Source of the DNA: a virus
Lineage: Duplodnaviria > Caudoviricetes
Length of the DNA: 64,000 nucleotides
IMG/VR virus record: IMGVR_UViG_2934356561_000002
Coordinates: 28,017 to 92,016 of that record
Direction: 5' to 3' (one strand)
Of this stretch, positions 19,607-56,080 are shown in pieces (positions within the stretch are counted from its first letter, which is position 1; each line of letters begins with the position of its first letter). Both the position numbers and the translations under genes were made by a program. Below the pieces are notes generated by a model that searched no databases, was not told where the DNA came from, and saw nothing but the letters and a program-made list of their open reading frames with translations.

Positions 19607-21466
19607 TCACTTGTTGCCCCCGCTCCCCCGCTGCCCATGCTGCGCAGGCCCGTTGCCCTGGTCATTGACGGGCACGGCGGGCAGCTGCACCGCGGGCGCG
19701 ACGGGCTCGGCCGGTGCTTGGCGACCGAGGAACTTGGCGACCTCCTCCGGGTTTCCGAGGGCGTCGGCGAGGAGACGGGCCTGCTCGAAGCTGCGGGCCT
19801 GAATCTGCTCGATCTCCTTCTCCGCGTCCTCGATCGGCCACCCGGCCTCGGCCAGCATGCGGATCGCGGTCTCGAGGCTGATGACCTTTGCCTGGTAGGC
19901 GGTGGTGACCTGCTCGAGGATGGCGGCCTTGTCGGTCGGCGTGTACGGGCCGCGGACCAACTTGGCGGGGAGCGGCGTGACACCGGCCCAGTCGGGGTGC
20001 TGGCCGGCGATAAACAGGCGCTGCACGAAGCGGAGCAGCAGCATGTCCTTGTGGGCGCGGGCGAGCCGCATCCCGGCAATGAGTGAGTCGAGCGGTCCGA
20101 GGGACAGCTGCAGGGCGTACCCGGACGGGACCTTGGACGGGTCCATGGTCCCGAGGGAAACGGCGGGGAGGCGGACGACGTTCGCGGCCCGGTCGGCAAG
20201 GTCGTGTCCGTGCTCCCGGAGTTCACGGAGCGCTGGGGACGTGTCGACGGTTGTCAGCTTGCCGTTCTCGCCCAACGTGAACATGGCGCCAGGGCCGACG
20301 GCATACTGCTGCCTGCCGTCGGTCACGCCGGAGATCCCGACCATCGGAAGTCCGGTGGTCGCGGAGGCGCGGGCACTGTCCGTGTCGGTGGAGGCGAGCT
20401 CGTCGAACGCCTGAAGGGCCTTCGCAAGGGACGACTGCCCCCAGTGCTCCTCGGCGGGCGGAACGGTGTTCGGGGTGTGGATGACCGGGATGAAGTCGAT
20501 GTACAGGTCGAGATGGTCCAGGACCTCCCCCGCGCCGTTCGACGCGAAGACCGCCCGGTCCATGGGCAGACTGTCGACGTCGACCGCGCCCTTCAGATCG
20601 CCGAGCTCCCACGTGGCGTCGGTGAGGTAGCACGTGCGGTAGCTGGGCCGGTCGTTCCACGCGTACTGGCGGGAGATGCCGCCCTGGGCGTCGACCTGGT
20701 CCCCGGCGCCCACTACCGGCGTGGGCGGGGTGGCCTCGGTCGTCACGGGGGCACGAACGGCCCGGCCTTGCTGGTCGACGCCGGATGCGGTGGCCGGGCG
20801 AATCCAGTCCATCTCGTACGTGATGCGGCGCAGCCGTGCCTTCAGGCCGCGCTTCGGGTCCTCGGGGAGCTCCCAGGCAAGGTGGACGCGTTCGGGGAAG
20901 TCCGCGCCGTCACCGTCCTCGGGCAGCACCGGGAAGTAGAACCCGGGGTCGTACGTCCGAAGGCGTGGCCGCTGCTTGTCCGGGTCCCAGTACAGGAGGT
21001 ATACCCCGTCCCCGAGGCCGACCGCTTTCCGCTCGCACTGGAGCATCCGCATCGGCAGGAGTTCGTCGTCGGCCCACTCCCGCAGCAGCTCCTGGACTCG
21101 ATCGGCGGCCGCGGCCTCGGTCTCGTCAGCGGTGTCGGTCTGCTCGGCGCCGGGCGCGGTGATGTGCTGCTCCCGGCCCATGACGTGGGAGACCAGCGTC
21201 TCGATGAACATCGACGGGTCGCCGAACTCGCGGCGCTCCCGTGCGGAAGCGCCGTCACGGATCTCGGCGAGCTCGGCGGCTTGGTTGTTGTCGTATGCGG
21301 CGAGCAGCTTGTACGCGGACAGGCGGCGTTCGTCGGCGGCCGGTACCCAGGAGGCGTGAGCTTCGGAGAACGCGCGGCGGTTGGGCATGCCGAGCGACGG
21401 GTCGCTGTAGATCGGCTTGTAGTTCAGCCACGACCATGCGTCGATGACCACGCTCTTGAGGCCCAC
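19607..21466 (-). CDS. portal protein
   Basis: Between TerL and scaffold; HTPNT...HWGQSSL, PSGYAL, ISLETA motifs. Confidence 0.8.
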   Translation of the reverse strand: MGLKSVVIDAWSWLNYKPIYSDPSLGMPNRRAFSEAHASWVPAADERRLSAYKLLAAYDNNQAAELAEIRDGASARERREFGDPSMFIETLVSHVMGREQHITAPGAEQTDTADETEAAAADRVQELLREWADDELLPMRMLQCERKAVGLGDGVYLLYWDPDKQRPRLRTYDPGFYFPVLPEDGDGADFPERVHLAWELPEDPKRGLKARLRRITYEMDWIRPATASGVDQQGRAVRAPVTTEATPPTPVVGAGDQVDAQGGISRQYAWNDRPSYRTCYLTDATWELGDLKGAVDVDSLPMDRAVFASNGAGEVLDHLDLYIDFIPVIHTPNTVPPAEEHWGQSSLAKALQAFDELASTDTDSARASATTGLPMVGISGVTDGRQQYAVGPGAMFTLGENGKLTTVDTSPALRELREHGHDLADRAANVVRLPAVSLGTMDPSKVPSGYALQLSLGPLDSLIAGMRLARAHKDMLLLRFVQRLFIAGQHPDWAGVTPLPAKLVRGPYTPTDKAAILEQVTTAYQAKVISLETAIRMLAEAGWPIEDAEKEIEQIQARSFEQARLLADALGNPEEVAKFLGRQAPAEPVAPAVQLPAVPVNDQGNGPAQHGQRGSGGNK

Positions 21467-21653
21467 GGGGCACACCTCCGCACCAGGCCCCGCGCCATGC
21501 GATCAGGTTACGGGCGCGAGCCCTGGATGCTGCCCCTGCCGCATTTCGGCGAATCTGTACCGAGCCGCTGTCCTGTGTGCATAGGGTGTCCACATGGCGA
21601 CCGTGTGTCGCAGCGTCACTTCCCCCTGCACGTCTATCGAAAGGGGAGCAGTG

Positions 21654-21776
21654 ATGGCTGGACGTCGCAGGAAGCCGCGTGTGAAACGAGGTGGGGCCCT
21701 GAGAACAGGGCTCGATGTTGCACTTTGGGTCCTACGCCTGGCTCAGTTAGCAGCCGACCAGGGGTGGATCTCCTAG
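21654..21776 (+). CDS. 40-aa basic/hydrophobic peptide
   Basis: AAGGGGAG RBS, ATG, followed by a hairpin. Confidence 0.5.
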   Translation: MAGRRRKPRVKRGGALRTGLDVALWVLRLAQLAADQGWIS

Positions 21777-26375: not shown

Positions 26376-28778
26376 TCAGTTCTGGGGCTTGCGGAGTACG
26401 GGGTGGTTGCCGTGCTCGTCAGGGGTGGCGCTGATGACGCCGTCGGCGGCGAGGTCAGCGATGACCGTGTTGGCTACCTCCCAGCCGATGCGGAGGTTCC
26501 GCTGAAGGAATGCGGCGGAGGCGTGCTGCTTGGCCACCACCAGTTCCACGGCGTCACCCATGACGGCGATGACTTGGCTGGTGAGACTGTTGTTCGTGCC
26601 CGGCTGGTCTCCGGTGTTGCCTTTTTCGTCGGTGGTCCACACGTAGACGCCGCGGCCCGGCTTCTGGATGTTGGGGTGGGCTGTGAACCAGTTCTGCACG
26701 GCGGTGTCGGACGGGGGTGTTTCGCCCGGGTACAGGGCTTCGAGCCGGGCGCGGACGTCTGCGACGGTGATGCCGTCCTTGCCTGCGTCGCGGACCCAGT
26801 TGGTGACCTCGTCGCGCCGGGGGTGCCGACGGTTGTTCTTCGTCGGCTTGATGAGGTCGACGGCGGCCTGCTTGGTGAGATTTTCGGCCTCGCTGAGCAG
26901 GCGCTCAACTGCGGCGGGGTCCAGTGCGGGCTCGGCTTCGGCGGCGGCCGGGGCCTGGGCCTGCTCGTATTGCTTGGCGCGCTCGATGTAGGAGTCGATG
27001 GAGGGCAGCGGGGCGATGGTTCCCGTGGCCGCGGCAGCTGACGGGCGGGCGGGCCGGGCCGGGCCCTGAGGTGCCGGGGCGGGGGTTGCGGGTTCGGTGG
27101 TGTTGGCAGGGGTGGGGCGGCCGATGGCGTCGAGGAGCCAGTTGATGCGGTCGGCCGCCCAGCGGGTGGAGTATCCGTAGGGGGCGGCGTCAGCCTGAGA
27201 CTGCTTGTCGAGGTCGGGGCGGATGTCCCAGCGTTCGACGGCCTTCTCCTCGATGACGCGGGCTTCGGTGCCGTCGGGGTGCTCGTCGTCGTCATAGATG
27301 AAGTAGCCCTTGAACTTCTCGGGACCCATGCCGGTCTTGGAGCGCTTCTCGTCGAGGACGTAGAAGGATCCGTCGCCGGGCAGCTTGGACAGGTCGACGC
27401 GCTGGAAGTAGTCGGGGAACACGAACTGGCCTTCGCCCTTCTTGGGGAAGCGGCCTCCGATGACGGTGTCGTACTGGGACATGACTTCGCCGCCGCCGGT
27501 GTTGGGTCCGGTGCCACGCTGGGCTGCGTCGATGTAGTCGACGGCGGCCTTGCGGCCCTTCTTGATGCCGCGGATCTTCTCCTGGATCGCCTCGGGGACG
27601 CGGGACATGAGCTCGGGGTTCTCGTCGGTGATGACGATGAGGGCCGGGGTGGTGGCGGTGGGGCGGATCTTGCCTCCGGGCATGCGGCGGGCACGGCCGT
27701 CGGCGACGGCGACGGATGCCTTGAGGAGACGCACGGCTTCTTCGACCGAGGTGGCGACCCAGTCGAGGATGGGCCGGTCGATGAGCCGGTCGTGCTGGTC
27801 CTTCCACTGCTCGACCCAAGGCCGCAGCCACCGCTTGGCTGTATTGCCCTCGGCCATGTCGATCATCCAGATGACGGCGTCGGTGCAGCGGGTGATGACA
27901 CTGATGATGCAATGGAGCAGGACGGACTTGCCGCTCCCCTTCTTGCCGGCGATGAACACGCTGTTCTGCCGGAACTTGATCTCGAAGGGTTCGCCGGATT
28001 CCAGGGCGCCGAGGGTGAGGGGTTCGGTGATGGTGAGGGGGTGGGTGTCGTCGGGCAGGTCGATGGACTCGGACAGGACGTTGCGGGTGGAGACGTACAG
28101 GACGGCGTCGGAGGCGAGACCGCTGTCGCCGGGGCGGAGGTCGAGGGCGCCGGTACGCAGGTCGCCCTTCTTCGTCTCGATCATCGGCAGCATAGGCAGG
28201 ATCTGGGCGTACGGGGTGCCGGTGAGCTTGAGAGGCAGGGCGTATCCGCCGCGGGTGGTGAACGAGTCCGGCTGCACCTTGACGCCGCGGGCGCCGGCCT
28301 GCTCGAAGAGGCGCTCCCACTCGTTGCCGTCGACGACCTGGTTCTGCTTGGCCTCCTCGGCCCACTGGGCGGCGATCATGTCGTGGCGGAGGTAACGGTC
28401 AACGGCGTAGGCGGGGGTGAGGGCTGCGGTGGCGATCGCGACGGTCGCGGCGGAGGCCATGGTCCACGGGGAGTCGTGGGATGTCCAGGTGAGCCAGGCG
28501 TAGGTGGCGGCGGTCCAGGTCGCGGTGAACGCGGTGTGGAAGGTGCGGGCGGGGACGGTCTGGTGGCGGGTGCGGAACCAGCGGGATGCGGCGGCGGTGA
28601 CGATCCCGGTGATGGAGCCGAGGCCCATGAGAGCGATCGGGAGGCCGGTGCCGTCTGTGGCGAGGTCCATGGCGAGGCCGCCGGCGTACACGGTGGCCGC
28701 GGTGTAGAGCGGCGTGGTGATGGTGCCGTGCCGCCACGGGATCGGCTCGTGGTTGCGGGGGCGGTCGAACATGGACAC
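26376..28778 (-). CDS. traB: TraB-like FtsK/SpoIIIE conjugative DNA translocase
   Basis: N-terminal TM helices, GKKGSGKS Walker A, IWMID, LIVITDE Walker B, AAQR, C-terminal wHTH and FtsK-gamma-like domains. Confidence 0.9.
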   Translation of the reverse strand: MSMFDRPRNHEPIPWRHGTITTPLYTAATVYAGGLAMDLATDGTGLPIALMGLGSITGIVTAAASRWFRTRHQTVPARTFHTAFTATWTAATYAWLTWTSHDSPWTMASAATVAIATAALTPAYAVDRYLRHDMIAAQWAEEAKQNQVVDGNEWERLFEQAGARGVKVQPDSFTTRGGYALPLKLTGTPYAQILPMLPMIETKKGDLRTGALDLRPGDSGLASDAVLYVSTRNVLSESIDLPDDTHPLTITEPLTLGALESGEPFEIKFRQNSVFIAGKKGSGKSVLLHCIISVITRCTDAVIWMIDMAEGNTAKRWLRPWVEQWKDQHDRLIDRPILDWVATSVEEAVRLLKASVAVADGRARRMPGGKIRPTATTPALIVITDENPELMSRVPEAIQEKIRGIKKGRKAAVDYIDAAQRGTGPNTGGGEVMSQYDTVIGGRFPKKGEGQFVFPDYFQRVDLSKLPGDGSFYVLDEKRSKTGMGPEKFKGYFIYDDDEHPDGTEARVIEEKAVERWDIRPDLDKQSQADAAPYGYSTRWAADRINWLLDAIGRPTPANTTEPATPAPAPQGPARPARPSAAAATGTIAPLPSIDSYIERAKQYEQAQAPAAAEAEPALDPAAVERLLSEAENLTKQAAVDLIKPTKNNRRHPRRDEVTNWVRDAGKDGITVADVRARLEALYPGETPPSDTAVQNWFTAHPNIQKPGRGVYVWTTDEKGNTGDQPGTNNSLTSQVIAVMGDAVELVVAKQHASAAFLQRNLRIGWEVANTVIADLAADGVISATPDEHGNHPVLRKPQN

Positions 28779-28892
28779 TGAGGTCTCCTTGGTGGTCTGG
28801 GCCGGGGGTGGTGGCCGGGCCTGCGGGGGTGCGGGCCCGGCCGGTGGCGCTGTTCGGAACTGGTCCTGCGGCAAATCGGTTGCGGGTGTGGG

Positions 28893-35503: not shown

Positions 35504-36271
35504 CTAGTCGGTGAAGTCGTACTCCATGACGAAGCGGGAGGCGTCGAGGAGCATGTCGTTGACCTCCACAATTCGGCCGGACTCATCGGCCGCAGTGCGG
35601 ACGATGTGCATCACCGGCGTCCCTGCTCCCATGCCCAGGCTCGCGGCTTCCTCGGGGCTGGGCATCCGGGATCGCAGTTCCTCACGGAACCTCTTCGGCT
35701 CGTGTCCGAGGTCGGCAAGGCGCGCGTAGATACCACCGGGCCCGGTGTCCACCTGGGTGATCGGTGAGCCGGCGACGATGTCGACTGGCAGGTACGAAAC
35801 TGCCGTCATGACGGGAACGTCGTCGACCGTGTAGGTACGTGCGCGCTTGTAGACGAGTTCACCGCTCGGAAGACCCATGGTGCGGGCAACCTGGGCCGGC
35901 GGGGTGACTTCGACCGGCTCTTCATTCAGCGGGACCATGGGCCTGTCGTGTACGTCGACCGACCACATGGACTGGCCGCCGCCCCAGAGCTCCTTGGACA
36001 GCCTCTTGGTCGCATTGCGCCGGATCGGCTCGAAGGAGCGGACGAAGAATCCCTTGCCGTGGCGGCTCTCGAGGACGCCTTGATCTCGCAGGGACACCAG
36101 AGCGTTCCGGGCGGTCATTTTCGACACACCGTGGCGCTCTTTGAGCTCCATCTCGCTGGGCACCTTCTCGCCGGGCGCCAGGACTCCTTCCAGGATCATG
36201 GCGCGCAACTCCGCGGCGATCCGCTGGAACGCGGGCAGCTCGCGATCGTTCGGCGTCTTCTCGCCTGGCAA
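35504..36271 (-). CDS. GntR/HutC-family repressor (KorSA/TraR-like)
   Basis: PGEKVPSE...GVSKMTAR...GKGFFV wHTH plus UTRA domain. Confidence 0.92.
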   Translation of the reverse strand: MPGEKTPNDRELPAFQRIAAELRAMILEGVLAPGEKVPSEMELKERHGVSKMTARNALVSLRDQGVLESRHGKGFFVRSFEPIRRNATKRLSKELWGGGQSMWSVDVHDRPMVPLNEEPVEVTPPAQVARTMGLPSGELVYKRARTYTVDDVPVMTAVSYLPVDIVAGSPITQVDTGPGGIYARLADLGHEPKRFREELRSRMPSPEEAASLGMGAGTPVMHIVRTAADESGRIVEVNDMLLDASRFVMEYDFTD

Positions 36272-48252: not shown

Positions 48253-49077
48253 ATGAACAAGGAAGCACTGCGAGATCTCCTCAAGAGCCACCGAGACCGC
48301 ATAGATCCGGAGGATCACGGCTATAAACGGCTCAGCCGCCAGGGCCGCAGAGCCCCCGGCCTGACCCAACACCAAGTCGACCAGCTCCTCACCCGAGAAA
48401 TGGGCACCTACCGGCTCCTGGAGTCCGGCAGGAACCCCCGGCCGAAGACCGACCTCCTGCGGGACGTAGCGGCACTTTTCGGAATGGACGAACACGCCTG
48501 GGTGCTCCTCAACCGGTACGCGCTCGGCCAGGAACCCCCCGCCCCCCTCTACACAGACTCAGGGTTCCAGGTCCCCTCGTCATGGCAGCAGGCCGTCGAC
48601 GGGATCGAGCACATGGCATACGTGACGGACGCCGCGTGGAACATGGTCTGCCACAACAAGCACCTCCCGGGCATGTACCCGGGCCGGCGGGTCCCGCAGA
48701 ACATCATGCGGTGGATGTGCCTGGACCCCGAAGCGCGCACCGTCCTCGCGGACTGGGAAACAGAGTGGGCGCCCCGCATCCTCCCCCAGCTCCGTGCCGC
48801 CGTGGCGATCCACCACGACGCCACCGTCAAGCAGCTCGAGACCGACGTGATGGCCGACCCGGTCGCCGGGCCCCTCTACGAAGCGCGTGGTGCGGTCATC
48901 CACCCCGACGGCGACGAACGCCCTCTCACCCACCCCCTCCTCGGGCGTGGCTGGGTCACCATGTGCTCCGCGACACCCGAAGGATCCCCCGGCGCCCGCC
49001 TCATGATCCTCCTTTTCCGGCCAGGTACGGCCCGGCCCGCCCCGCACGCCATCCTCCGCGCACCCGGAACCCCCTGA
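48253..49077 (+). CDS. XRE/MmyB-family transcriptional regulator
   Basis: LRDLLKSHRDRIDP..GRRAPGLTQ HTH; AYVTDAAWN PAS-like ligand domain. Confidence 0.88.
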   Translation: MNKEALRDLLKSHRDRIDPEDHGYKRLSRQGRRAPGLTQHQVDQLLTREMGTYRLLESGRNPRPKTDLLRDVAALFGMDEHAWVLLNRYALGQEPPAPLYTDSGFQVPSSWQQAVDGIEHMAYVTDAAWNMVCHNKHLPGMYPGRRVPQNIMRWMCLDPEARTVLADWETEWAPRILPQLRAAVAIHHDATVKQLETDVMADPVAGPLYEARGAVIHPDGDERPLTHPLLGRGWVTMCSATPEGSPGARLMILLFRPGTARPAPHAILRAPGTP

Positions 49078-49184
49078 CCACACCAGCCCCACACACCCCA
49101 GCCCGGACAACCAGGGGCAAGGATCCAGCCACAAGCAGCTACTTTGAGGAAGTCTTTACCCCTAGCTGCCCCGTGGAGGACCCC

Positions 49185-50225
49185 TTGCCCGCCTACGTCA
49201 CCCTCCCGCAGGTCACCCTCCCCCCGCACAAGGTCACCACCGACGCGATCCTCGAAGACATCCGCGCCCACCACCCCGACCACCCCCGGCTCGAGGTCAT
49301 CACGCGGGCAATAGGCAACAGCGGAGTGAAAACGAGGCACTTCACGAGACCTCTCTCCTCCCCCACCGTGAATGGCACCGCAGGAGTCCTCGAGCGCACC
49401 ACCGCCGCGTTTGAGGACTCCCTGCACATGGCCACGGACGCCGCGCTCAAGGCCCTCGCGCACGCCGGCCTCACCCCCGACCAGGTCAATGTCATCATCA
49501 CGTCGCACGCCACCGGATGGGCCGTCCCAAATCTCGACGTCCGACTCATCGACCGTCTCGGGCTCCGGCCCACGGTGCGCCGCATCCCGATGACGACCCT
49601 CGCATGCGCCGGCGGCGTCCAGTCCCTCATCCGGGCCGCCGACCAGGTCACGGTCCGCCCCACCGACACCGTGCTCGTCGTCGTCACCGAGACCCTCTCC
49701 ACGTCGTACAACCACGCCGACACATCGGTCCCGTCGATGATCTACAAAGCCCTGTTCGCCGACAGTGCCGCCGCAGCCGTCGTCACCGCCGAGCCCCTCC
49801 AACCCGGGCTCCGCATCGACGACAGCCTCGAATACTGGCTCCCCGAATCCCTCGACCGGTACCGCGGCCGCCTCGACGACACCGGCATGCACTTCGACTC
49901 CGACCGGCGGGCCCCCGCCGCCGCATCCCACGCGATGCCCGCCGTTCTCCAGTGGATCGGTGACCGCATCCTCGACTGGGTCGCGATCCACCCCGGCGGC
50001 CCCAGCATCATCCACAACGTCGCCGAGGCCGTAGGGCTCGACGACCTGGACGCCCACCACTCCTACGCGTCCCTCGCCGAGAACGGGAACCTCGGCGGCG
50101 CATCGGTCCTCGACGTCCTCGCTCGCACACACACCACCCCGCCCGCAGGCGGCGCGGAAGGACTCCTCGTCGCGTTCGGCCCCGGTTTCACCACCGCAGC
50201 CATCCGCGGCGCCTGGCACGCCTGA
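49185..50225 (+). CDS. type III polyketide synthase (chalcone synthase-like)
   Basis: GGAGG RBS + TTG; LACAGG (Cys), LFAD, HPGG (His), GNLGGAS (Asn), FGPGF. Confidence 0.93.
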   Translation: MPAYVTLPQVTLPPHKVTTDAILEDIRAHHPDHPRLEVITRAIGNSGVKTRHFTRPLSSPTVNGTAGVLERTTAAFEDSLHMATDAALKALAHAGLTPDQVNVIITSHATGWAVPNLDVRLIDRLGLRPTVRRIPMTTLACAGGVQSLIRAADQVTVRPTDTVLVVVTETLSTSYNHADTSVPSMIYKALFADSAAAAVVTAEPLQPGLRIDDSLEYWLPESLDRYRGRLDDTGMHFDSDRRAPAAASHAMPAVLQWIGDRILDWVAIHPGGPSIIHNVAEAVGLDDLDAHHSYASLAENGNLGGASVLDVLARTHTTPPAGGAEGLLVAFGPGFTTAAIRGAWHA

Positions 50226-52040: not shown

Positions 52041-53714
52041 GTGCCCACCACAGAGGTACTGAGGGCGTACAGATTCACCCTCGATCCGACCGACGCGCAG
52101 CGGTCCGATCTCGCCCGGCATGCCGGGGCCTGCCGGTGGGCGTACAACTACGCCCTGGCGAAGAAGCGGCAGAGCCACGAGGCGTGGGCGGCGATGCGCG
52201 ATGCGCACGTCGCCGCGGGTATGACGGAGGCCGGGGCCAAGAACGCGATCAAGCAGGCCGGGGCAGGCCTGCGGGACCGTATCGCGGTGTGGGATCACCA
52301 CCGCAAGTCCCTCATGGCGGCTGCCCGCGGCACGGCTGCGCCCGAACAACCCGCGGCCGCCGAACGGGAATCCGGTCTGGCCGGGCGGCTGCGCGGGCTC
52401 CGCGACGCTGCAACCCCCGAGACCGCGAAGACCCTGCTTGCCGAGGCCCGTCGAACCGTGAACGCCCTCAAGGCCGAGGCATTTACGGCCGGATTCCGGA
52501 CGCCGTCGTCCATGGACACCTGCGCCCTGTGGCGCACCGAGCGCGACCTGCCACGCGAGGAGGGGGGCTCCCCCTGGCACTCCGAGGTCAGCGTCTACGG
52601 GTTCACCGGGGGATTCGACCGTGCCGACGCGGCGTGGAAGAACTGGCTGGACTCCTTCAGCGGGAAGCGGGCCGGGCGCCGGGTCGGCTACCCGCGCTTC
52701 GCGGCCAAGCACCGCAGCCGCGACAGCTTCAGCCTCTACCACGATGTGAAGGCGCCGAGTATCCGACCGGACGGATACCGGCGTCTGACGCTGCCCTCCC
52801 TGGGCAGCGTCCGAATCCACAACTCGAACAAGCACCTGTCCAGGCTCCTCGACCGGGGCCAGGCTATGGTCCGGTCCGTCACGATCAGCCGCGGCGCGCA
52901 CCGGTGGTACGCGAGCGTCCTGGTCGCGGCCCAGCAGCACATCCCGGACAAGCCCACCCGCCGTCAGCGCACTGGCGGCCTGGTGGGAATCGATCTCGGC
53001 TCCCGCCATCTCGCCGCTCTCTCCTCACGGCTCGACCAGTCCGACCCCGACTCGACGCTCATCGAGCACCCCCGGTTCCTGAACCGGGACCTGGAGAAGA
53101 TTCAGCACCGTCAGCGGGCCCTCTCCCGTACCAAGAAGGGCTCCAGCCGGCGCAAGAAGGCCGCCGACCACCTCGCCCGCGCCCACCACGAGGTCGTCAT
53201 GCGCCGCACGACCTACCTCCACAAGGTGACCAAACGCCTCACGACCCGGTTCGCCCAGATCGCGATCGAGGACCTGGACCTGACCGGAATGACGGCATCG
53301 GCCCGCGGCACCGAGGAACAGCCCGGTACGAACGTCAAGGTCCAGGCCCAGTTCAACCGGCACCTCCTGGACGCCGGACTGGGTGAGCTGCGCCGCCAGC
53401 TCACCTACAAGAGCCCCTGGTACGGAGCACAGCTCATCGTCCTCGACCGAGCCGAGCCCGTCGCCAGTACGTGCGCGAAATGCGGGGAGCGAGACCCAAG
53501 CTCCACACCGTCGCGCGCGAGATTCACCTGCCCTTCGTGCGGGAACGCCGTGCCCCGCCACGAAAACGCTGTCGCGAACATCATTCGCACAGCACGCAGA
53601 CAAACGGCAGTCGCCTCCGACAGGGGGGAGACTCAAAACGCTCGCCGAGTCCCGATCCCCGGCGCCCGCAAGAGCGCCAGGGCCGAGACGCTGACGCGAG
53701 AAGACACCGGCTAA
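52041..53714 (+). CDS. tnpB: TnpB/Cas12f-like RNA-guided protein with RuvC-III D>H (predicted nuclease-dead), CRISPR-adjacent
   Basis: GGAGGTGA RBS; RAYRFTLDPT..HAGACRWAYNYAL; GYPRF; GIDLG (RuvC-I); IAIEDL (RuvC-II); CAKC..CPSC; PRHENAVANI in place of DRDxNAAxNI. Confidence 0.9.
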   Translation: MPTTEVLRAYRFTLDPTDAQRSDLARHAGACRWAYNYALAKKRQSHEAWAAMRDAHVAAGMTEAGAKNAIKQAGAGLRDRIAVWDHHRKSLMAAARGTAAPEQPAAAERESGLAGRLRGLRDAATPETAKTLLAEARRTVNALKAEAFTAGFRTPSSMDTCALWRTERDLPREEGGSPWHSEVSVYGFTGGFDRADAAWKNWLDSFSGKRAGRRVGYPRFAAKHRSRDSFSLYHDVKAPSIRPDGYRRLTLPSLGSVRIHNSNKHLSRLLDRGQAMVRSVTISRGAHRWYASVLVAAQQHIPDKPTRRQRTGGLVGIDLGSRHLAALSSRLDQSDPDSTLIEHPRFLNRDLEKIQHRQRALSRTKKGSSRRKKAADHLARAHHEVVMRRTTYLHKVTKRLTTRFAQIAIEDLDLTGMTASARGTEEQPGTNVKVQAQFNRHLLDAGLGELRRQLTYKSPWYGAQLIVLDRAEPVASTCAKCGERDPSSTPSRARFTCPSCGNAVPRHENAVANIIRTARRQTAVASDRGETQNARRVPIPGARKSARAETLTREDTG

Positions 53715-53761
53715 CACCGGTGCCACCCCCGGAGAGCGATCCCCGGGCCCCCGCAACGCAC
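53608..53761 (+). ncRNA. omegaRNA-derived scaffold / putative tracrRNA
   Basis: Hairpins GTCGCCTCC-GACA-GGGGGGAGAC, CACCGG-CTAACA-CCGGTG, CCCGGAGA-GCGA-TCCCCGGG; 3' CCCCCGCA complementary to the repeat. Confidence 0.55.
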
Positions 53762-53819
53762 CACCCCTAACTCAACAGAGAACCAACACGCAGCTAACCA
53801 AACTCACAGCTCATCCAGG

Positions 53820-54126
53820 GTGCTACCCATGCGCGTGCGGGGAGGTCCACCTGCCAAACATCACCCTCAGGGCAAGGTTTGTGCTACCCATGCGCGTGCG
53901 GGGAGGTCCGGAGTCGGCTCCGCGAGGTAACGGGATACGAGGTGCTACCCATGCGCGTGCGGGGAGGTCCCTGACCTACCAGAACATCACGACGCGAGGT
54001 TCAGCACCCTTAGGTGTGGCAAGCGCCATGGACAGTGTTCCACCCACGTGCTTGCGGGGAGGTCCTTGATTTTCACTACGGTGTGCAGACGGGCCGGGTG
54101 TCGCCCACATACGCGCGGGGAGCGAC
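53820..54126 (+). CRISPR. CRISPR array B: 3 identical 29-bp repeats + 2 degenerate, 32-bp spacers
   Basis: GTGCTACCCATGCGCGTGCGGGGAGGTCC at 53820, 53881, 53942; variants at 54035 and 54098. Confidence 0.92.
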
Positions 54127-54152
54127 GCGAGGAAGGCGCGGCCCGAACAGCC

Positions 54153-54482
54153 CTACCCACTGGCCAGCCCCGTCTGCGGATTACAGATCTGGCACGGCTC
54201 GATGTCTGGCTCGGCGAGCGCGATCAGGGCTTCCTCACGGTCGAGGAATCCGAGCTCGGACTTGAAGAGGGTGCAGCCGCCGCGGTGCAGCATCGCGGGC
54301 ATCCCGCCGCGTTGCGGCTGGATTTTCCAGGACTGCTCCGCCCGCGCCCGCTGCCGCGCCCGTGCCTCCTGCTGTTCCTTGACCTCAAGCTCCCGGATCC
54401 GGCCCCGGACCTGACGCAGCTGCCACTCCAGCCACTCGGCGAGGGCCCGGTTCTTGTCCAGGTCGGATATGCCGCCGGACAC
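54153..54482 (-). CDS. DUF6233-like protein
   Basis: LHRGGC...EEALIAL...IEPCQICNP. Confidence 0.8.
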   Translation of the reverse strand: MSGGISDLDKNRALAEWLEWQLRQVRGRIRELEVKEQQEARARQRARAEQSWKIQPQRGGMPAMLHRGGCTLFKSELGFLDREEALIALAEPDIEPCQICNPQTGLASG

Positions 54483-54484
54483 GG

Positions 54485-54780
54485 CTACGCCTCGGCCGGC
54501 TCGTGGGCGTGCTTGAGCGCCATGCGGGCCTTGACCACGTCCCCGCTCAGCGCCGCCCAGTACGGGTGCGTCATCACCTCGGCACTCAGCCGGCGCAGCT
54601 CATCCTGGAAGCGCTGGACTTCTGTGGCCTGCTCCTCCGTGTACCCGGGACTGTCCGACTTGGAGGAGATGTAGTTGCTGTGGAGCTGCTTGTCGCTCTC
54701 CCACCCGGGCATCGGCTCGGCCGACCACGGCAAAGTCTTGGCGTACTCCTCGTACGCGGCGCGGGCTGTTCTTTGGCACG
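54485..54780 (-). CDS. hypothetical protein (start uncertain, possibly truncated)
   Basis: LPWSAEPMPGW...SPGYTEEQ...THPYW...ARMALK. Confidence 0.55.
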
Positions 54781-54974
54781 CGCCAATGCTACGTCTGTTC
54801 GAATACCGGATGCGAATGGCGCGCCGGACACCCCCAGCCCCCACCTGCCACACTGACCGTGGTCCGCCACGTCACCCCCGCCGCGGCGGGCCACCCCCGT
54901 ACGCAGAAAAGCGGCCCACCATCCCCAGGGACAGTGGGCCGCTCGGCGGGGAGGCCAGGCCCGCACCGTACGAC

Positions 54975-55631
54975 TCAGCCACGCTCCGTGTACGGCAAAA
55001 GCACAGAATCCACCCTCCCGGCCAGCTGTGCCGCACGCTGCGGATCCCGGGCCTTCGGCGCCCCGGCCAGGGTCGGCACCAGCCAGTCCGGGCCCAGCAC
55101 GTGCACCACACCCCGCTGGCCCGGCACCCGCGCCTCCAGCCGGCCACCGGCTATCGGGGACCCGTGGACCACAATGAGCGGCCACACCTGATCCGGGCGC
55201 AGCCCGACCGCGGTCGCAACCACTTCTGCATACCCGGCGACCTTCTCGACCTGGTCGTGCCGGTCGTCCTCACCGCAGTGCACCCGGCCGCCGACCAGTG
55301 CCGTGGTGCGGCCGCGGTGCCAGTTCTTCGTATCAAGGACCACGACCGCGGTGCCGCACGGCGACGCCAGTGCCGTGTCGATGTTGAACCTGCGGCCCCG
55401 CAGCCGGAGGTCGTGACGGATGTGCCACCCGGCGGCCTCGAGCGGGGCCAATAACAGAGCCGTCGCCTCCTCCCCTGCAGCGCCGTGCGCCCACCGGGCC
55501 GCTGCCGCATTCGCGCACCGCACCTTCGCACCACCGAGGCCGAGGAACGCTAGCAGGCGCCGCCACAGGCCACGCCGGGCACCCGCACGCAGTTCCGCGG
55601 CACGGGCTGCAGCCGAGTTCCTCGTACTCAC
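54975..55631 (-). CDS. NERD (nuclease-related domain) protein
   Basis: GAAGEE..HDLRL..NID..VVLDTKNW. Confidence 0.85.
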   Translation of the reverse strand: MSTRNSAAARAAELRAGARRGLWRRLLAFLGLGGAKVRCANAAAARWAHGAAGEEATALLLAPLEAAGWHIRHDLRLRGRRFNIDTALASPCGTAVVVLDTKNWHRGRTTALVGGRVHCGEDDRHDQVEKVAGYAEVVATAVGLRPDQVWPLIVVHGSPIAGGRLEARVPGQRGVVHVLGPDWLVPTLAGAPKARDPQRAAQLAGRVDSVLLPYTERG

Positions 55632-56080
55632 CGCCCGCCCCCGGCGATCACGGCGGCGACGGCGATCCAGCCCTTGTGCCACGCCTGGTCCAGCAGCAGG
55701 CCGGCGCCCGGGTCGCGCTTCAGCCACTTGGTGTGTCCGGTACGTCGGGCGAACCGCACGAGGGCGGTCGACGGCCCCTTCTCCTGCCACCGGCCACCGG
55801 ACCGGTCAGCGACATAGTGCGTCACCGCGGACACGGCCAGCCCAGCGGCCGCACGCCGCCAGTCCAGGCCGAGGCGCAACGCCCGGTCTGCGGCGAGCAG
55901 GGCGACCGCCTGCGTGGCCGTATAGCTGGCAACATGCCTTGCGCATGCAGCCCTTCCTTCCCAGCCGCACTTGCCCTTCGCACTAGCGTCGGCGTCCCGC
56001 TGCCCCCAGAAGTCACCAACGTCGTGGGAGGCGTTCAGTGCCGCATAGGCGCCGATTGCTCGTACTGCTGTGGTGGTCAT
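55628..56080 (-). CDS. DUF3307-like membrane protein
   Basis: HDVGDFWGQ...HVASY...THYVADR...DQAWH. Confidence 0.75.
   Translation of the reverse strand: MTTTAVRAIGAYAALNASHDVGDFWGQRDADASAKGKCGWEGRAACARHVASYTATQAVALLAADRALRLGLDWRRAAAGLAVSAVTHYVADRSGGRWQEKGPSTALVRFARRTGHTKWLKRDPGAGLLLDQAWHKGWIAVAAVIAGGGR

Follow-up and report, generated by a model that had tools for sequence, protein, structure and literature searches.

Cas12n effectors, of which AcCas12n and RdCas12n are examples reportedly described by Chen et al. 2023 (Mol Cell), are seen as the earliest step from TnpB to a type V CRISPR system and are used as compact genome editors. In the available sections of PMC12216341, Cas12n is equated with type V-U4 and is characterized by a disordered C-terminal loop, a trans-activating CRISPR RNA (tracrRNA) region overlapping the open reading frame (ORF), and A-rich protospacer-adjacent motifs (PAMs), namely AAG/AAV for AcCas12n and AAC/AAH for RdCas12n; the catalytic residues of RdCas12n (PDB 9j09) are given there as D287, E386 and D484. 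The present work concerns a 64,000-nt stretch, hereafter the window, which comprises bases 28017-92016 of a 92,016-bp IMG/VR virus record (IMGVR_UViG_2934356561_000002), and in which a TnpB-like effector gene is followed by a short CRISPR array. The locus is very probably a Cas12n-family module with the layout inherited from that family. The kind of system is already known (type V-U4, Cas12n), and what is new is a clade of its effectors that carry histidine at the third catalytic position, the phage-borne and array-bearing member of that clade, and its putative single-guide chromosomal form. The features of the locus, in window positions, are as follows.

52041 (GTG)..53714 (TAA), plus strand: effector gene of the Cas12n (type V-U4) family, R-H-E-N subclade, 557 aa, assigned by PADLOC, phmmer and tree
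52992..52994, plus strand: codon of the RuvC-I residue Asp318, in GIDLG, intact
53268..53270, plus strand: codon of the RuvC-II residue Glu410, in IEDL, intact
53559..53564, plus strand: codons of His507-Glu508 at the RuvC-III position (R-H-E-N in place of R-D-x-N), the His507 codon being 53559-53561
53715..53819, plus strand: 3' untranslated stretch from the stop to repeat 1, the first ~50 nt being a scaffold conserved across the His clade in an alignment of downstream regions
53744..53760, plus strand: candidate anti-repeat (tracr part) capable of pairing with repeat nt 13-29, inside the remnant of the C-terminal tail
53820..53848, plus strand: repeat 1, 29 nt
53849..53880, plus strand: spacer 1, 32 nt, the first 22 nt matching one IMG/VR phage contig at a gene start
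53881..53909, plus strand: repeat 2
53910..53941, plus strand: spacer 2, 32 nt, no match found
53942..53970, plus strand: repeat 3
53971..54036, plus strand: 66 nt comprising spacer 3 (first 20 nt like spacer 1) and, after it, a repeat unit in advanced decay
54037..54065, plus strand: repeat 4, degenerate, ~80% identical to repeat 1
54066..54097, plus strand: spacer 4, 32 nt, no match found
54098..54126, plus strand: repeat 5, degenerate, ~70%, at the trailer end

The effector matches the PADLOC model Cas12u4 (PDLC00933) with 592.5 bits (E 1.7e-178) over residues 2-554, and its best sequence relative of solved structure is RdCas12n (9j09; 254 bits, E 3e-74, versus 119 bits for ISDra2 TnpB; phmmer); Cas12m is distant, at only 22-24 bits. 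The NCBIfam model guided_TnpB is passed (214 bits, cut-off 100), and the equivalog cut-offs are missed for both IS607_TnpB (264 vs 350) and IS200_TnpB (161 vs 425). Its Pfam domains are HTH_OrfB_IS605 (PF12323, residues 6-47), OrfB_IS605 (PF01385, 304-419) and Cas12f1-like_TNB (PF07282, 448-514). An AlphaFold2 (AF2) model made with 33 clade sequences as input shows the TnpB/Cas12 fold, with a predicted local distance difference test score (pLDDT) of 79.7, and the C-terminus (525-557) is predicted to be disordered (pLDDT <50). The best Foldseek matches to this model are all TnpB or Cas12f entries, with TnpB 8h1j in first place (template-modelling score, on the target, of 0.79), the match of highest identity being 9j09, with 26% over its resolved 257 residues.

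The layout of the locus also recurs among the relatives, whose surveyed loci comprise 45 from species genomes, 8 further non-duplicate ones from Streptomyces, 4 from metagenomes, 1 from IMG/VR and 1 from a plasmid. Among the 37 in which the relative has the canonical D-R-D-x-N motif, or in which the motif was not captured, an I-E-like array of 61-nt period lies directly after the gene in 26 (17/25, 5/7, 3/4 and 1/1 by sample), in most canonical relatives beginning within about 30 nt of the stop. The array-bearing loci include one from Actinomadura craniellae, the species from which AcCas12n comes. A transposase domain in the upstream ORF was found at none of 19 of these loci (2 more had no testable ORF), nor at any of 10 loci of the His clade.

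Compared with AcCas12n and RdCas12n, the locus is alike in its profile and sequence match, its actinobacterial hosts and its size of about 500-560 aa, as well as in an array placed just after the gene on the same strand, the lack of adaptation genes, a disordered C-terminus and a putative guide scaffold sharing sequence with the 3' end of the ORF. It differs in that D484 of RdCas12n is replaced by His, in a larger recognition (REC) insertion (residues about 50-175), in a truncated C-terminal tail with the array at +105 nt as against ~30 nt in most relatives, and in being phage-borne. With the TldRs, the TnpB-derived nuclease-dead repressors of Wiegand et al. 2023, it shares the loss of a RuvC active-site residue and the absence of a transposase, as well as carriage by a phage, which the available part of 10.1101/2023.11.30.569447 describes for the fliC-associated TldR clade; the array-less relatives of the window protein likewise have one conserved short guide-like core. 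Unlike TldRs, the window protein has an entire Zn-finger/RuvC C-terminal part and retains two catalytic residues out of three, and the locus has a multi-spacer array, no conserved partner gene and a descent from the Cas12n branch. Cas12m (V-U1) and Cas12k (V-U5), as far as the accessible text of PMC12216341 describes them, are similar as compact TnpB-derived effectors with arrays and, possibly, in RNA-guided binding without cleavage of double-stranded DNA. The window protein is only distantly related to them, however, no Tn7 genes accompany it, and non-cleavage is here a putative trait. The TnpBs of IS607 and IS605 have the same domain architecture and fold and, as is proposed here too, a guide scaffold encoded at the 3' end of the gene, whereas the window lacks TnpA and insertion-sequence (IS) ends, and an array replaces the single flank-derived guide. 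Type I-E arrays, finally, have the same 29-nt repeat and 32-nt spacer, the differences being the absence here of a stable repeat hairpin and of CasE/Cas1, and of the repeat from the Streptomyces genomes searched. No prior description of a native Streptomyces Cas12n (as judged from titles and abstracts), or of a link between TnpB and ice-binding genes, was found in the literature searched, although the supplements of Chen et al. 2023 may bear on the point. The text parts of the PMC12216341 supplements contain neither 'Streptomyces' nor an RHENS or RHENA string, and Streptomyces is not mentioned in the available text of the TldR papers.

The RuvC D-E-D triad of the effector is incomplete. D318 and E410 are kept, and the third position is H507, which lies in the stretch PRHENAVANI and is aligned opposite the Asp of 'DRDlNAA' in RdCas12n (9j09). 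In an alignment of the query with its best 120 database matches, the R-H-E-N group, here called the His clade, comprises 45 proteins (P0001-P0045) with His at this position in 44 and Tyr in one; the following residue is acidic in 42 of the 45 (39 Glu, 3 Asp). All four Cys of the Zn-finger are kept throughout the clade (45/45), E410 is kept in 43 members and is Asp in the other two, and D318 is kept in 38. In the other seven, D318 is replaced by Gly (five), Ala (one) or His (one), and these proteins still measure 586-604 aa. Streptomyces clade proteins of this D318G type, which lack two of the D-E-D residues, appear among the putative nuclease-dead TldRs of Supplementary Dataset 1 of 10.1101/2023.11.30.569447 (Wiegand et al. 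2023), with no remark on them in the text. The remaining aligned proteins are 8 of R-R-D-N type, 2 with other residues, and 66 canonical relatives with Asp in every case (66/66). Proteins with an altered RuvC-III form a single clade in an unrooted IQ-TREE tree of 60 rows (SH-aLRT 100), in which the window protein pairs with P0002 (100) and then P0003 (99), within a 21-row R-H-E-N clade (97). P0003, 72% identical to the window protein, stops at the same truncated C-terminus. The search for closer relatives with DNA context yielded at best 65% identity in 401 Streptomyces genomes and 53% in JGI metagenomes. Arrays were found at none of 16 other His-clade loci, one of which (L008) has only 73 nt of downstream sequence, and the phage lineage of the window is the sole array-bearing member of the clade seen. 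The sister group of R-R-D-N type (P0047-P0050, P0058, P0063, P0076 and P0089; loci L019 and L051) has Arg at the catalytic position and the acid one residue later, with D318 and E410 intact in 8/8; a two-copy 59-nt direct repeat lies 178 nt downstream at L051.

The array starts 105 nt past the effector stop on the same strand and consists of three identical and two degenerate 29-nt repeats with a 61-nt period; the identical repeat has no further copies in the 92,016-bp genome. Three exact 29-mers at an exact 61-nt spacing cannot be the product of chance, and the decay is directed away from the gene, which is the pattern to be expected of an array whose leader lies on the side of the gene. The unit of 29 + 32 nt is that of type I-E arrays, and the repeat alone folds no better than its shuffles, i.e. 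it forms no stable hairpin. Spacers 1 and 3 (53849-53880 and 53971-54002) share 15 of their first 17 aligned bases, with an alignment score of 22 versus 10.4 ± 2.1 for shuffles (p about 0.001), and represent either related protospacers or an old duplication. A promoter and terminator scan gave nothing above shuffles, and an Rfam search of the window at gathering thresholds gave 0 matches. Six-frame family searches of the whole phage genome found no Cas1, CasE/Cas6e, Y1 TnpA (PF01797) or serine recombinase (PF00239). Among 55 ORFs screened with PADLOC, the cas effector models were matched solely by the 557-aa protein, no separate family searches being made for Cas2 and the Cascade subunits; one other ORF (L099:8099-9649; Pfam, HTH only) has a weak 27-bit match to a Csa3 signalling model. 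An earlier, sequence-only reading of this DNA had described a transposase-free, array-coupled effector of TnpB type on a phage, with the Asp and Glu of GIDLG and IEDL intact, the RuvC-III Asp changed to His at codon 53559-53561, and a 61-nt-period array 105 nt downstream on the same strand. All of this was confirmed, the identical repeats beginning at 53820, 53881 and 53942. Its statement that tnpA, cas1, cas2, cas6 and Cascade genes are missing holds for Cas1, CasE/Cas6e and TnpA across the whole genome, and for Cas2 and Cascade as far as the PADLOC screen of the 55 ORFs goes.

The stretch between the stop and the array includes a former part of the gene. Canonical relatives have a C-terminal tail, e.g. 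'...KREDTGPPGLVPPQRSDP...', whereas the window protein ends in '...REDTG', with a tail ~25 aa shorter. A remnant of the tail, 'TPVPPPESDPRAPATHHP', is readable out of frame at 53714-53770 (ORF 53471-53770, stop at 53768-53770), which implies that the effector gene was shortened by a frame change, and it is this shortening that places the array at +105 rather than near the stop as in most relatives. The frame change shortened the gene, yet the DNA with the candidate tracr/anti-repeat part was retained. Two hairpins belong to the conserved ~50 nt after the stop, one of them spanning the stop codon itself, and nt 3-41 after the stop match Streptomyces plasmids (PLSDB). The segment 53744-53760 is a candidate anti-repeat of a Cas12n-type tracrRNA, for which the pairing is suggestive. 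Its duplex with the repeat is present in the minimum free energy (MFE) fold of 53590-53848 (z -1.9; 11 of 200 shuffles fold as well) and reaches -24.2 kcal/mol, against a mean of -20.6 with the repeats of other loci (rank 3 of 14). In the cross-control, the region upstream of the window's array prefers its own repeat over 11 of the 13 repeats of other loci, and across the 14 loci the own repeat scores above the median of the others in 10 (mean rank 6.0 versus 7.5 expected). Comparison with shuffled repeats by RNAduplex was tried and set aside as a test, as it does not discriminate in GC-rich DNA.

The array-less members of the His clade have a different arrangement after the gene.

L005-L014, L016 and L017 (Streptomyces, Kitasatospora, Catellatospora), ~100-200 nt after the gene stop: array-less His-clade loci with a conserved core

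At 11 chromosomal loci the conserved 3' scaffold is followed by a linker of 8-106 nt (identity 0.45), 10 nt left over from a repeat, alignable with the 3' end of the repeat in the window (identity 0.92), and a 13-nt core (identity 0.92), beyond which identity is 0.40, 0.38 and 0.28. The anti-repeat-like segment and the remnant covary, being CGTCCC/GGGACG in the relatives versus CCCCGCA/TGCGGGG in the window. No transposase partner was found at the 10 array-less loci examined, and the flanking genes differ in all 10; four loci have a common left end ~150 nt upstream, with no shared motif before it. With <=2 mismatches allowed over 19 nt, three of five genomes proved to have a second site for the core and the bases that follow it. 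When the search was made with the flank plus 23 nt (<=3 mismatches), a site was found in 4 of 5 further or repeated genomes, once exact over 26/26, and reversed-pattern controls gave no match. Overall, 7 of 8 distinct genomes have a second site (loci L073, L075, L077 and L181-L185). The three sites of the 19-nt search share the same flanking coding sequence, and in both sites scanned with Pfam the site lies in an Ice_binding gene (PF11999; E 5e-71 and 1e-66). AAC or AAT precedes every second site, which is the PAM type reported for Cas12n in the available part of PMC12216341. The core may be a fixed guide aimed at the cell's own Ice_binding gene, and the protein a fixed-guide regulator derived from Cas12n. 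Such a guide, matching the cell's own chromosome, would be tolerable only if the protein cuts barely or not at all.

The interval 52041-54160 is present in six DNA runs, each from a different study, of which one may be the source of this record; the contigs of four (X2, X3, X4 and X6) were compared. The effector gene and repeat units are present in all four of these related Streptomyces isolates, at about 96.6-99.3% identity. The long contigs differ from the window at 15 of 2,293 nt (X2), 52 of 2,000 (X4) and 69 of 2,062 (X6), and X3, available as short contigs only (up to 541 nt), has 0-6 differences in each. The isolate contigs tend to end at repeats. A 13.3-kb contig of X4 has an extra spacer unit of 33 nt between the second repeat and spacer 2, and in X2, X4 and X6 both substitutions and indels are seen in spacers 1 and 2. 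Several strains maintain the module, with differing spacer content.

Searches for the origin of the spacers gave a single candidate. Within the phage's own genome no spacer has a second match (13 nt at best); there was no match among INPHARED phages, PLSDB gave matches to non-spacer parts only, and no full-length match was found in 401 Streptomyces species genomes, one of them unpublished and the basis of no claim made here, where the partial matches of spacer 3 (25-26/32 nt) were discarded as being at chance level. Exact 22-mers of spacers 2, 3 and 4 are absent from IMG/VR. The first 22 of the 32 nt of spacer 1 match one 12.3-kb IMG/VR contig of 57% G+C, the last 10 nt being unmatched, and the match begins two bases downstream of the start-codon A in a gene with similarity to phrog_6059. 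This gene has a weak, sub-threshold Pfam match to Tet_JBP, lies near a TET-associated glycosyltransferase, a ParB-like gene and a terminase, and has no homologue in the window's phage. Some 0.01-0.05 chance matches are to be expected for such a search by a rough estimate, and the match is a weak lead to inter-phage targeting. Two further candidates were rejected: the proposal that spacer 1 and spacer 3 are each N-terminal coding sequence from a single family of phage genes was not supported by a comparison with 80 homologues, and a gapped likeness of spacers 1, 3 and 4 to the Ice_binding site region (p 0.05, 0.015 and 0.0035 in 10 tests) was not confirmed by ungapped scans of 8 Ice_binding loci.

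The explanation that best accommodates these observations, to which we give an even chance of being right as a whole, is that of a Cas12n module on a phage whose effector is mainly a binder of DNA, or at most a weak cutter. By analogy with the family, the last part of the gene, together with the 105 untranslated nucleotides left from the former C-terminal tail, would give rise to a tracrRNA that pairs with the repeats; repeat-spacer crRNAs would then guide the monomeric protein to DNA beside an A-rich PAM. The phage could use the protein against competing elements or host genes, and for the array the role of a multi-guide silencer is possible. That the protein itself is an RNA-guided DNA binder or silencer has close to an even chance, perhaps slightly less. 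The loss of the catalytic Asp, the full-length relatives without D318, of which Streptomyces examples are listed as putative TldRs, and the self-matching fixed cores together favour binding, weakly. A broader and decidedly more doubtful proposal is that the R-H-E-N clade as a whole would be a nuclease-disabled or re-tuned branch of Cas12n, which on phage-plasmids would retain a small multi-spacer array for silencing rivals or host genes, and which in Streptomyces and Kitasatospora chromosomes would have been reduced to a mobile unit devoid of TnpA, its single fixed guide of 13 nt repressing Ice_binding-like (PF11999) genes at an AAC-flanked site. This would amount to a CRISPR effector reverting to a single-guide regulator.

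Several observations weigh against a binding module of this kind. The residues D318, E410, H507 and E508 are well conserved in the window's lineage, which fits an altered working centre better than a dead one, and the acidic residue right after His (42/45) might take the place of the missing Asp. The array, besides being short, is in decay, the likeness of spacers 1 and 3 suggests duplicates that have diverged, and the anti-repeat pairing is suggestive at the values given above (z -1.9; own repeat favoured in 10/14 loci). No target is established; the sole candidate, that of spacer 1, covers 22/32 nt and has a TGA flank instead of AAN, and the other 79 of 80 homologues of the matched gene are at background (<=20/32 nt). 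The core of the array-less loci could also be a small scaffold hairpin or a relic of the ancestral insertion site, although the left flank of these loci shows no such relic.

The alternative that survives best, tentative as it is and less probable than the binder, is an active nuclease, in which His507 and Glu508 would complete a metal site of D-E-H type and the array would serve interference against rival phages and plasmids. RNase H-fold nucleases with His at the corresponding position exist, e.g. those with the Argonaute DEDH tetrad. D318 and E410 are intact in the window protein, and the conservation across the clade of H507 (44/45), of Glu or Asp at 508 (42/45) and of the Zn finger (45/45) speaks for such a site, as does the R-R-D-N sister group, in which the acid is likewise shifted by one position. 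The TldRs often lose the C-terminal Zn-finger/RuvC part, according to the portion of 10.1101/2023.11.30.569447 available, whereas the Zn finger is retained here. The match of spacer 1 to the start of another phage's gene, absent from the window's phage, would also suit interference, but this single protospacer candidate is weak and lacks the AAN flank. Moreover, 7 of the 45 clade members have lost D318 and are still full length, and a guide-like core that matches the cell's own chromosome beside a suitable PAM would be self-destructive for an enzyme that cuts efficiently.

A decaying relic, i.e. a functionless Cas12n module from which the catalytic Asp, the C-terminal tail and most of the array have gone, is improbable. 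The tail was indeed removed by a frame change and a stop, with its remnant out of frame at 53714-53770, just three repeats are intact before a degenerate trailer, spacers 1 and 3 resemble diverged duplicates, and no targets were found. Against this, the ORF is intact and ~96.6-99.3% identical in four other isolates, a relative with 72% identity keeps the same truncated end, no difference separates the three repeats nearest the leader, the clade as a whole conserves the 3' untranslated scaffold, and the spacer content varies between isolates.

Far less probable still is the interpretation put forward in the sequence-only reading, of a fresh and independent transition from TnpB to Cas12 that borrowed repeats of I-E type and acquires its spacers through a host I-E Cas1-Cas2. 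Its appeal lies in the 29 + 32 nt unit, which equals that of type I-E, in the lack of adaptation genes found on the phage and in the varying spacer content. The protein falls inside Cas12n/V-U4, however, with the same layout and repeat type in 26/37 loci, and since an array directly after the gene is the norm of the Cas12n family, an independent transition is not supported. Nor does acquisition in trans find support: the repeat, with up to 3 mismatches allowed, occurs in 0/401 Streptomyces species genomes, Cas1 was found in only 1 of 5 genomes holding array-linked relatives, the repeat of A. craniellae is confined to its Cas12n array (9/9 copies), and the window repeat folds no better than shuffles. 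The same reading had looked to homologues for conservation of both the Asp-to-His change and the adjacent array, in a clade outside the named subtypes. The change is conserved (His in 44/45, one clade) and the adjacency is not (0/16 other His-clade loci), and the protein belongs to a named subtype, as judged by PADLOC Cas12u4 and RdCas12n. The attractive claim of a newly born CRISPR system is in this way corrected. An ordinary IS200/IS605 or IS607 TnpB lying by chance beside a remnant host CRISPR array is scarcely credible. Pfam and NCBIfam TnpB models do match and RefSeq names the relatives TnpB (leaving the array unannotated at the plasmid locus examined), but there is no TnpA in the genome or beside the 29 relatives tested, the IS607_TnpB cut-off is missed, and the adjacency of gene and array recurs in dozens of independent loci.

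With the His clade, a large group of natural effectors is added that have His as third catalytic residue, in both array-bearing (phage) and putatively single-guide (chromosomal) forms. If its members do bind without cutting, they would provide ready-made compact repressor scaffolds, and would represent a second route to RNA-guided transcription factors, via a CRISPR effector rather than straight from TnpB. The phage would then be a case of a temperate or plasmid-like phage employing a minimal CRISPR module.

The carrier is a tailed phage of ~92 kb with 68% G+C, whose record is bounded by a terminal repeat of 95 bp and is rated 100% complete by CheckV. Its siphovirus-type morphogenesis block is complete (tape measure, major head, portal and large terminase; PHROGs), and further genes recognized by Pfam are FtsK-gamma/Tra-like, a primase-polymerase, SSB, RusA, a ParA-like ATPase, DciA-like, a C5 methylase and Rad52; a tyrosine recombinase gives a sub-threshold match only (23.1 vs a cut-off of 27.1 bits). 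A protein 98% identical to the effector (P0002) is known from a Streptomyces isolate, on a 105-kb contig, and hence the host is taken to be Streptomyces. It is plausible that this Streptomyces phage is a phage-plasmid. Genes for maintenance or transfer in the style of plasmids were observed at the following positions, and comprise a ParA-like ATPase, the weak tyrosine-recombinase-like ORF, an FtsK/Tra-like gene and a GntR/UTRA regulator.

G000:C1:4742-5809 and 20604-21755; window 26376-28874 and 35504-36271: plasmid-style genes

Relatives of the effector occur on 35 actinobacterial plasmids in PLSDB, of which 21 come from Streptomyces; several measure 110-120 kb. On one Streptomyces linear plasmid (NZ_CP109371.1, locus L186, 5286-5691 of the locus), a 7-repeat array after the gene is unannotated and the gene is named TnpB; a DciA-family gene lies just upstream of the relative in L186, L023 and L026. 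Two other elements of ~92 kb have canonical (DRD) or unresolved relatives with arrays of 3-5 repeats, one from IMG/VR (L004/L095, 92,984 bp) and one from a metagenome (L098, 92,214 bp).

No link to the array was seen for the neighbours (DUF6233, NERD, HTH), and no conserved partner gene stands beside the effector. Directly after the array, at 54153-55790 on the minus strand, lie a DUF6233 gene, an unknown gene of 122 aa and a NERD-domain gene, which could be an accessory or defence-type islet. Upstream, at 48253-50225, an MmyB-like HTH regulator (PF17765 and HTH_31) adjoins a gene that resembles those of type III polyketide synthases and encodes chalcone/stilbene synthase domains, a cargo unusual for a phage.

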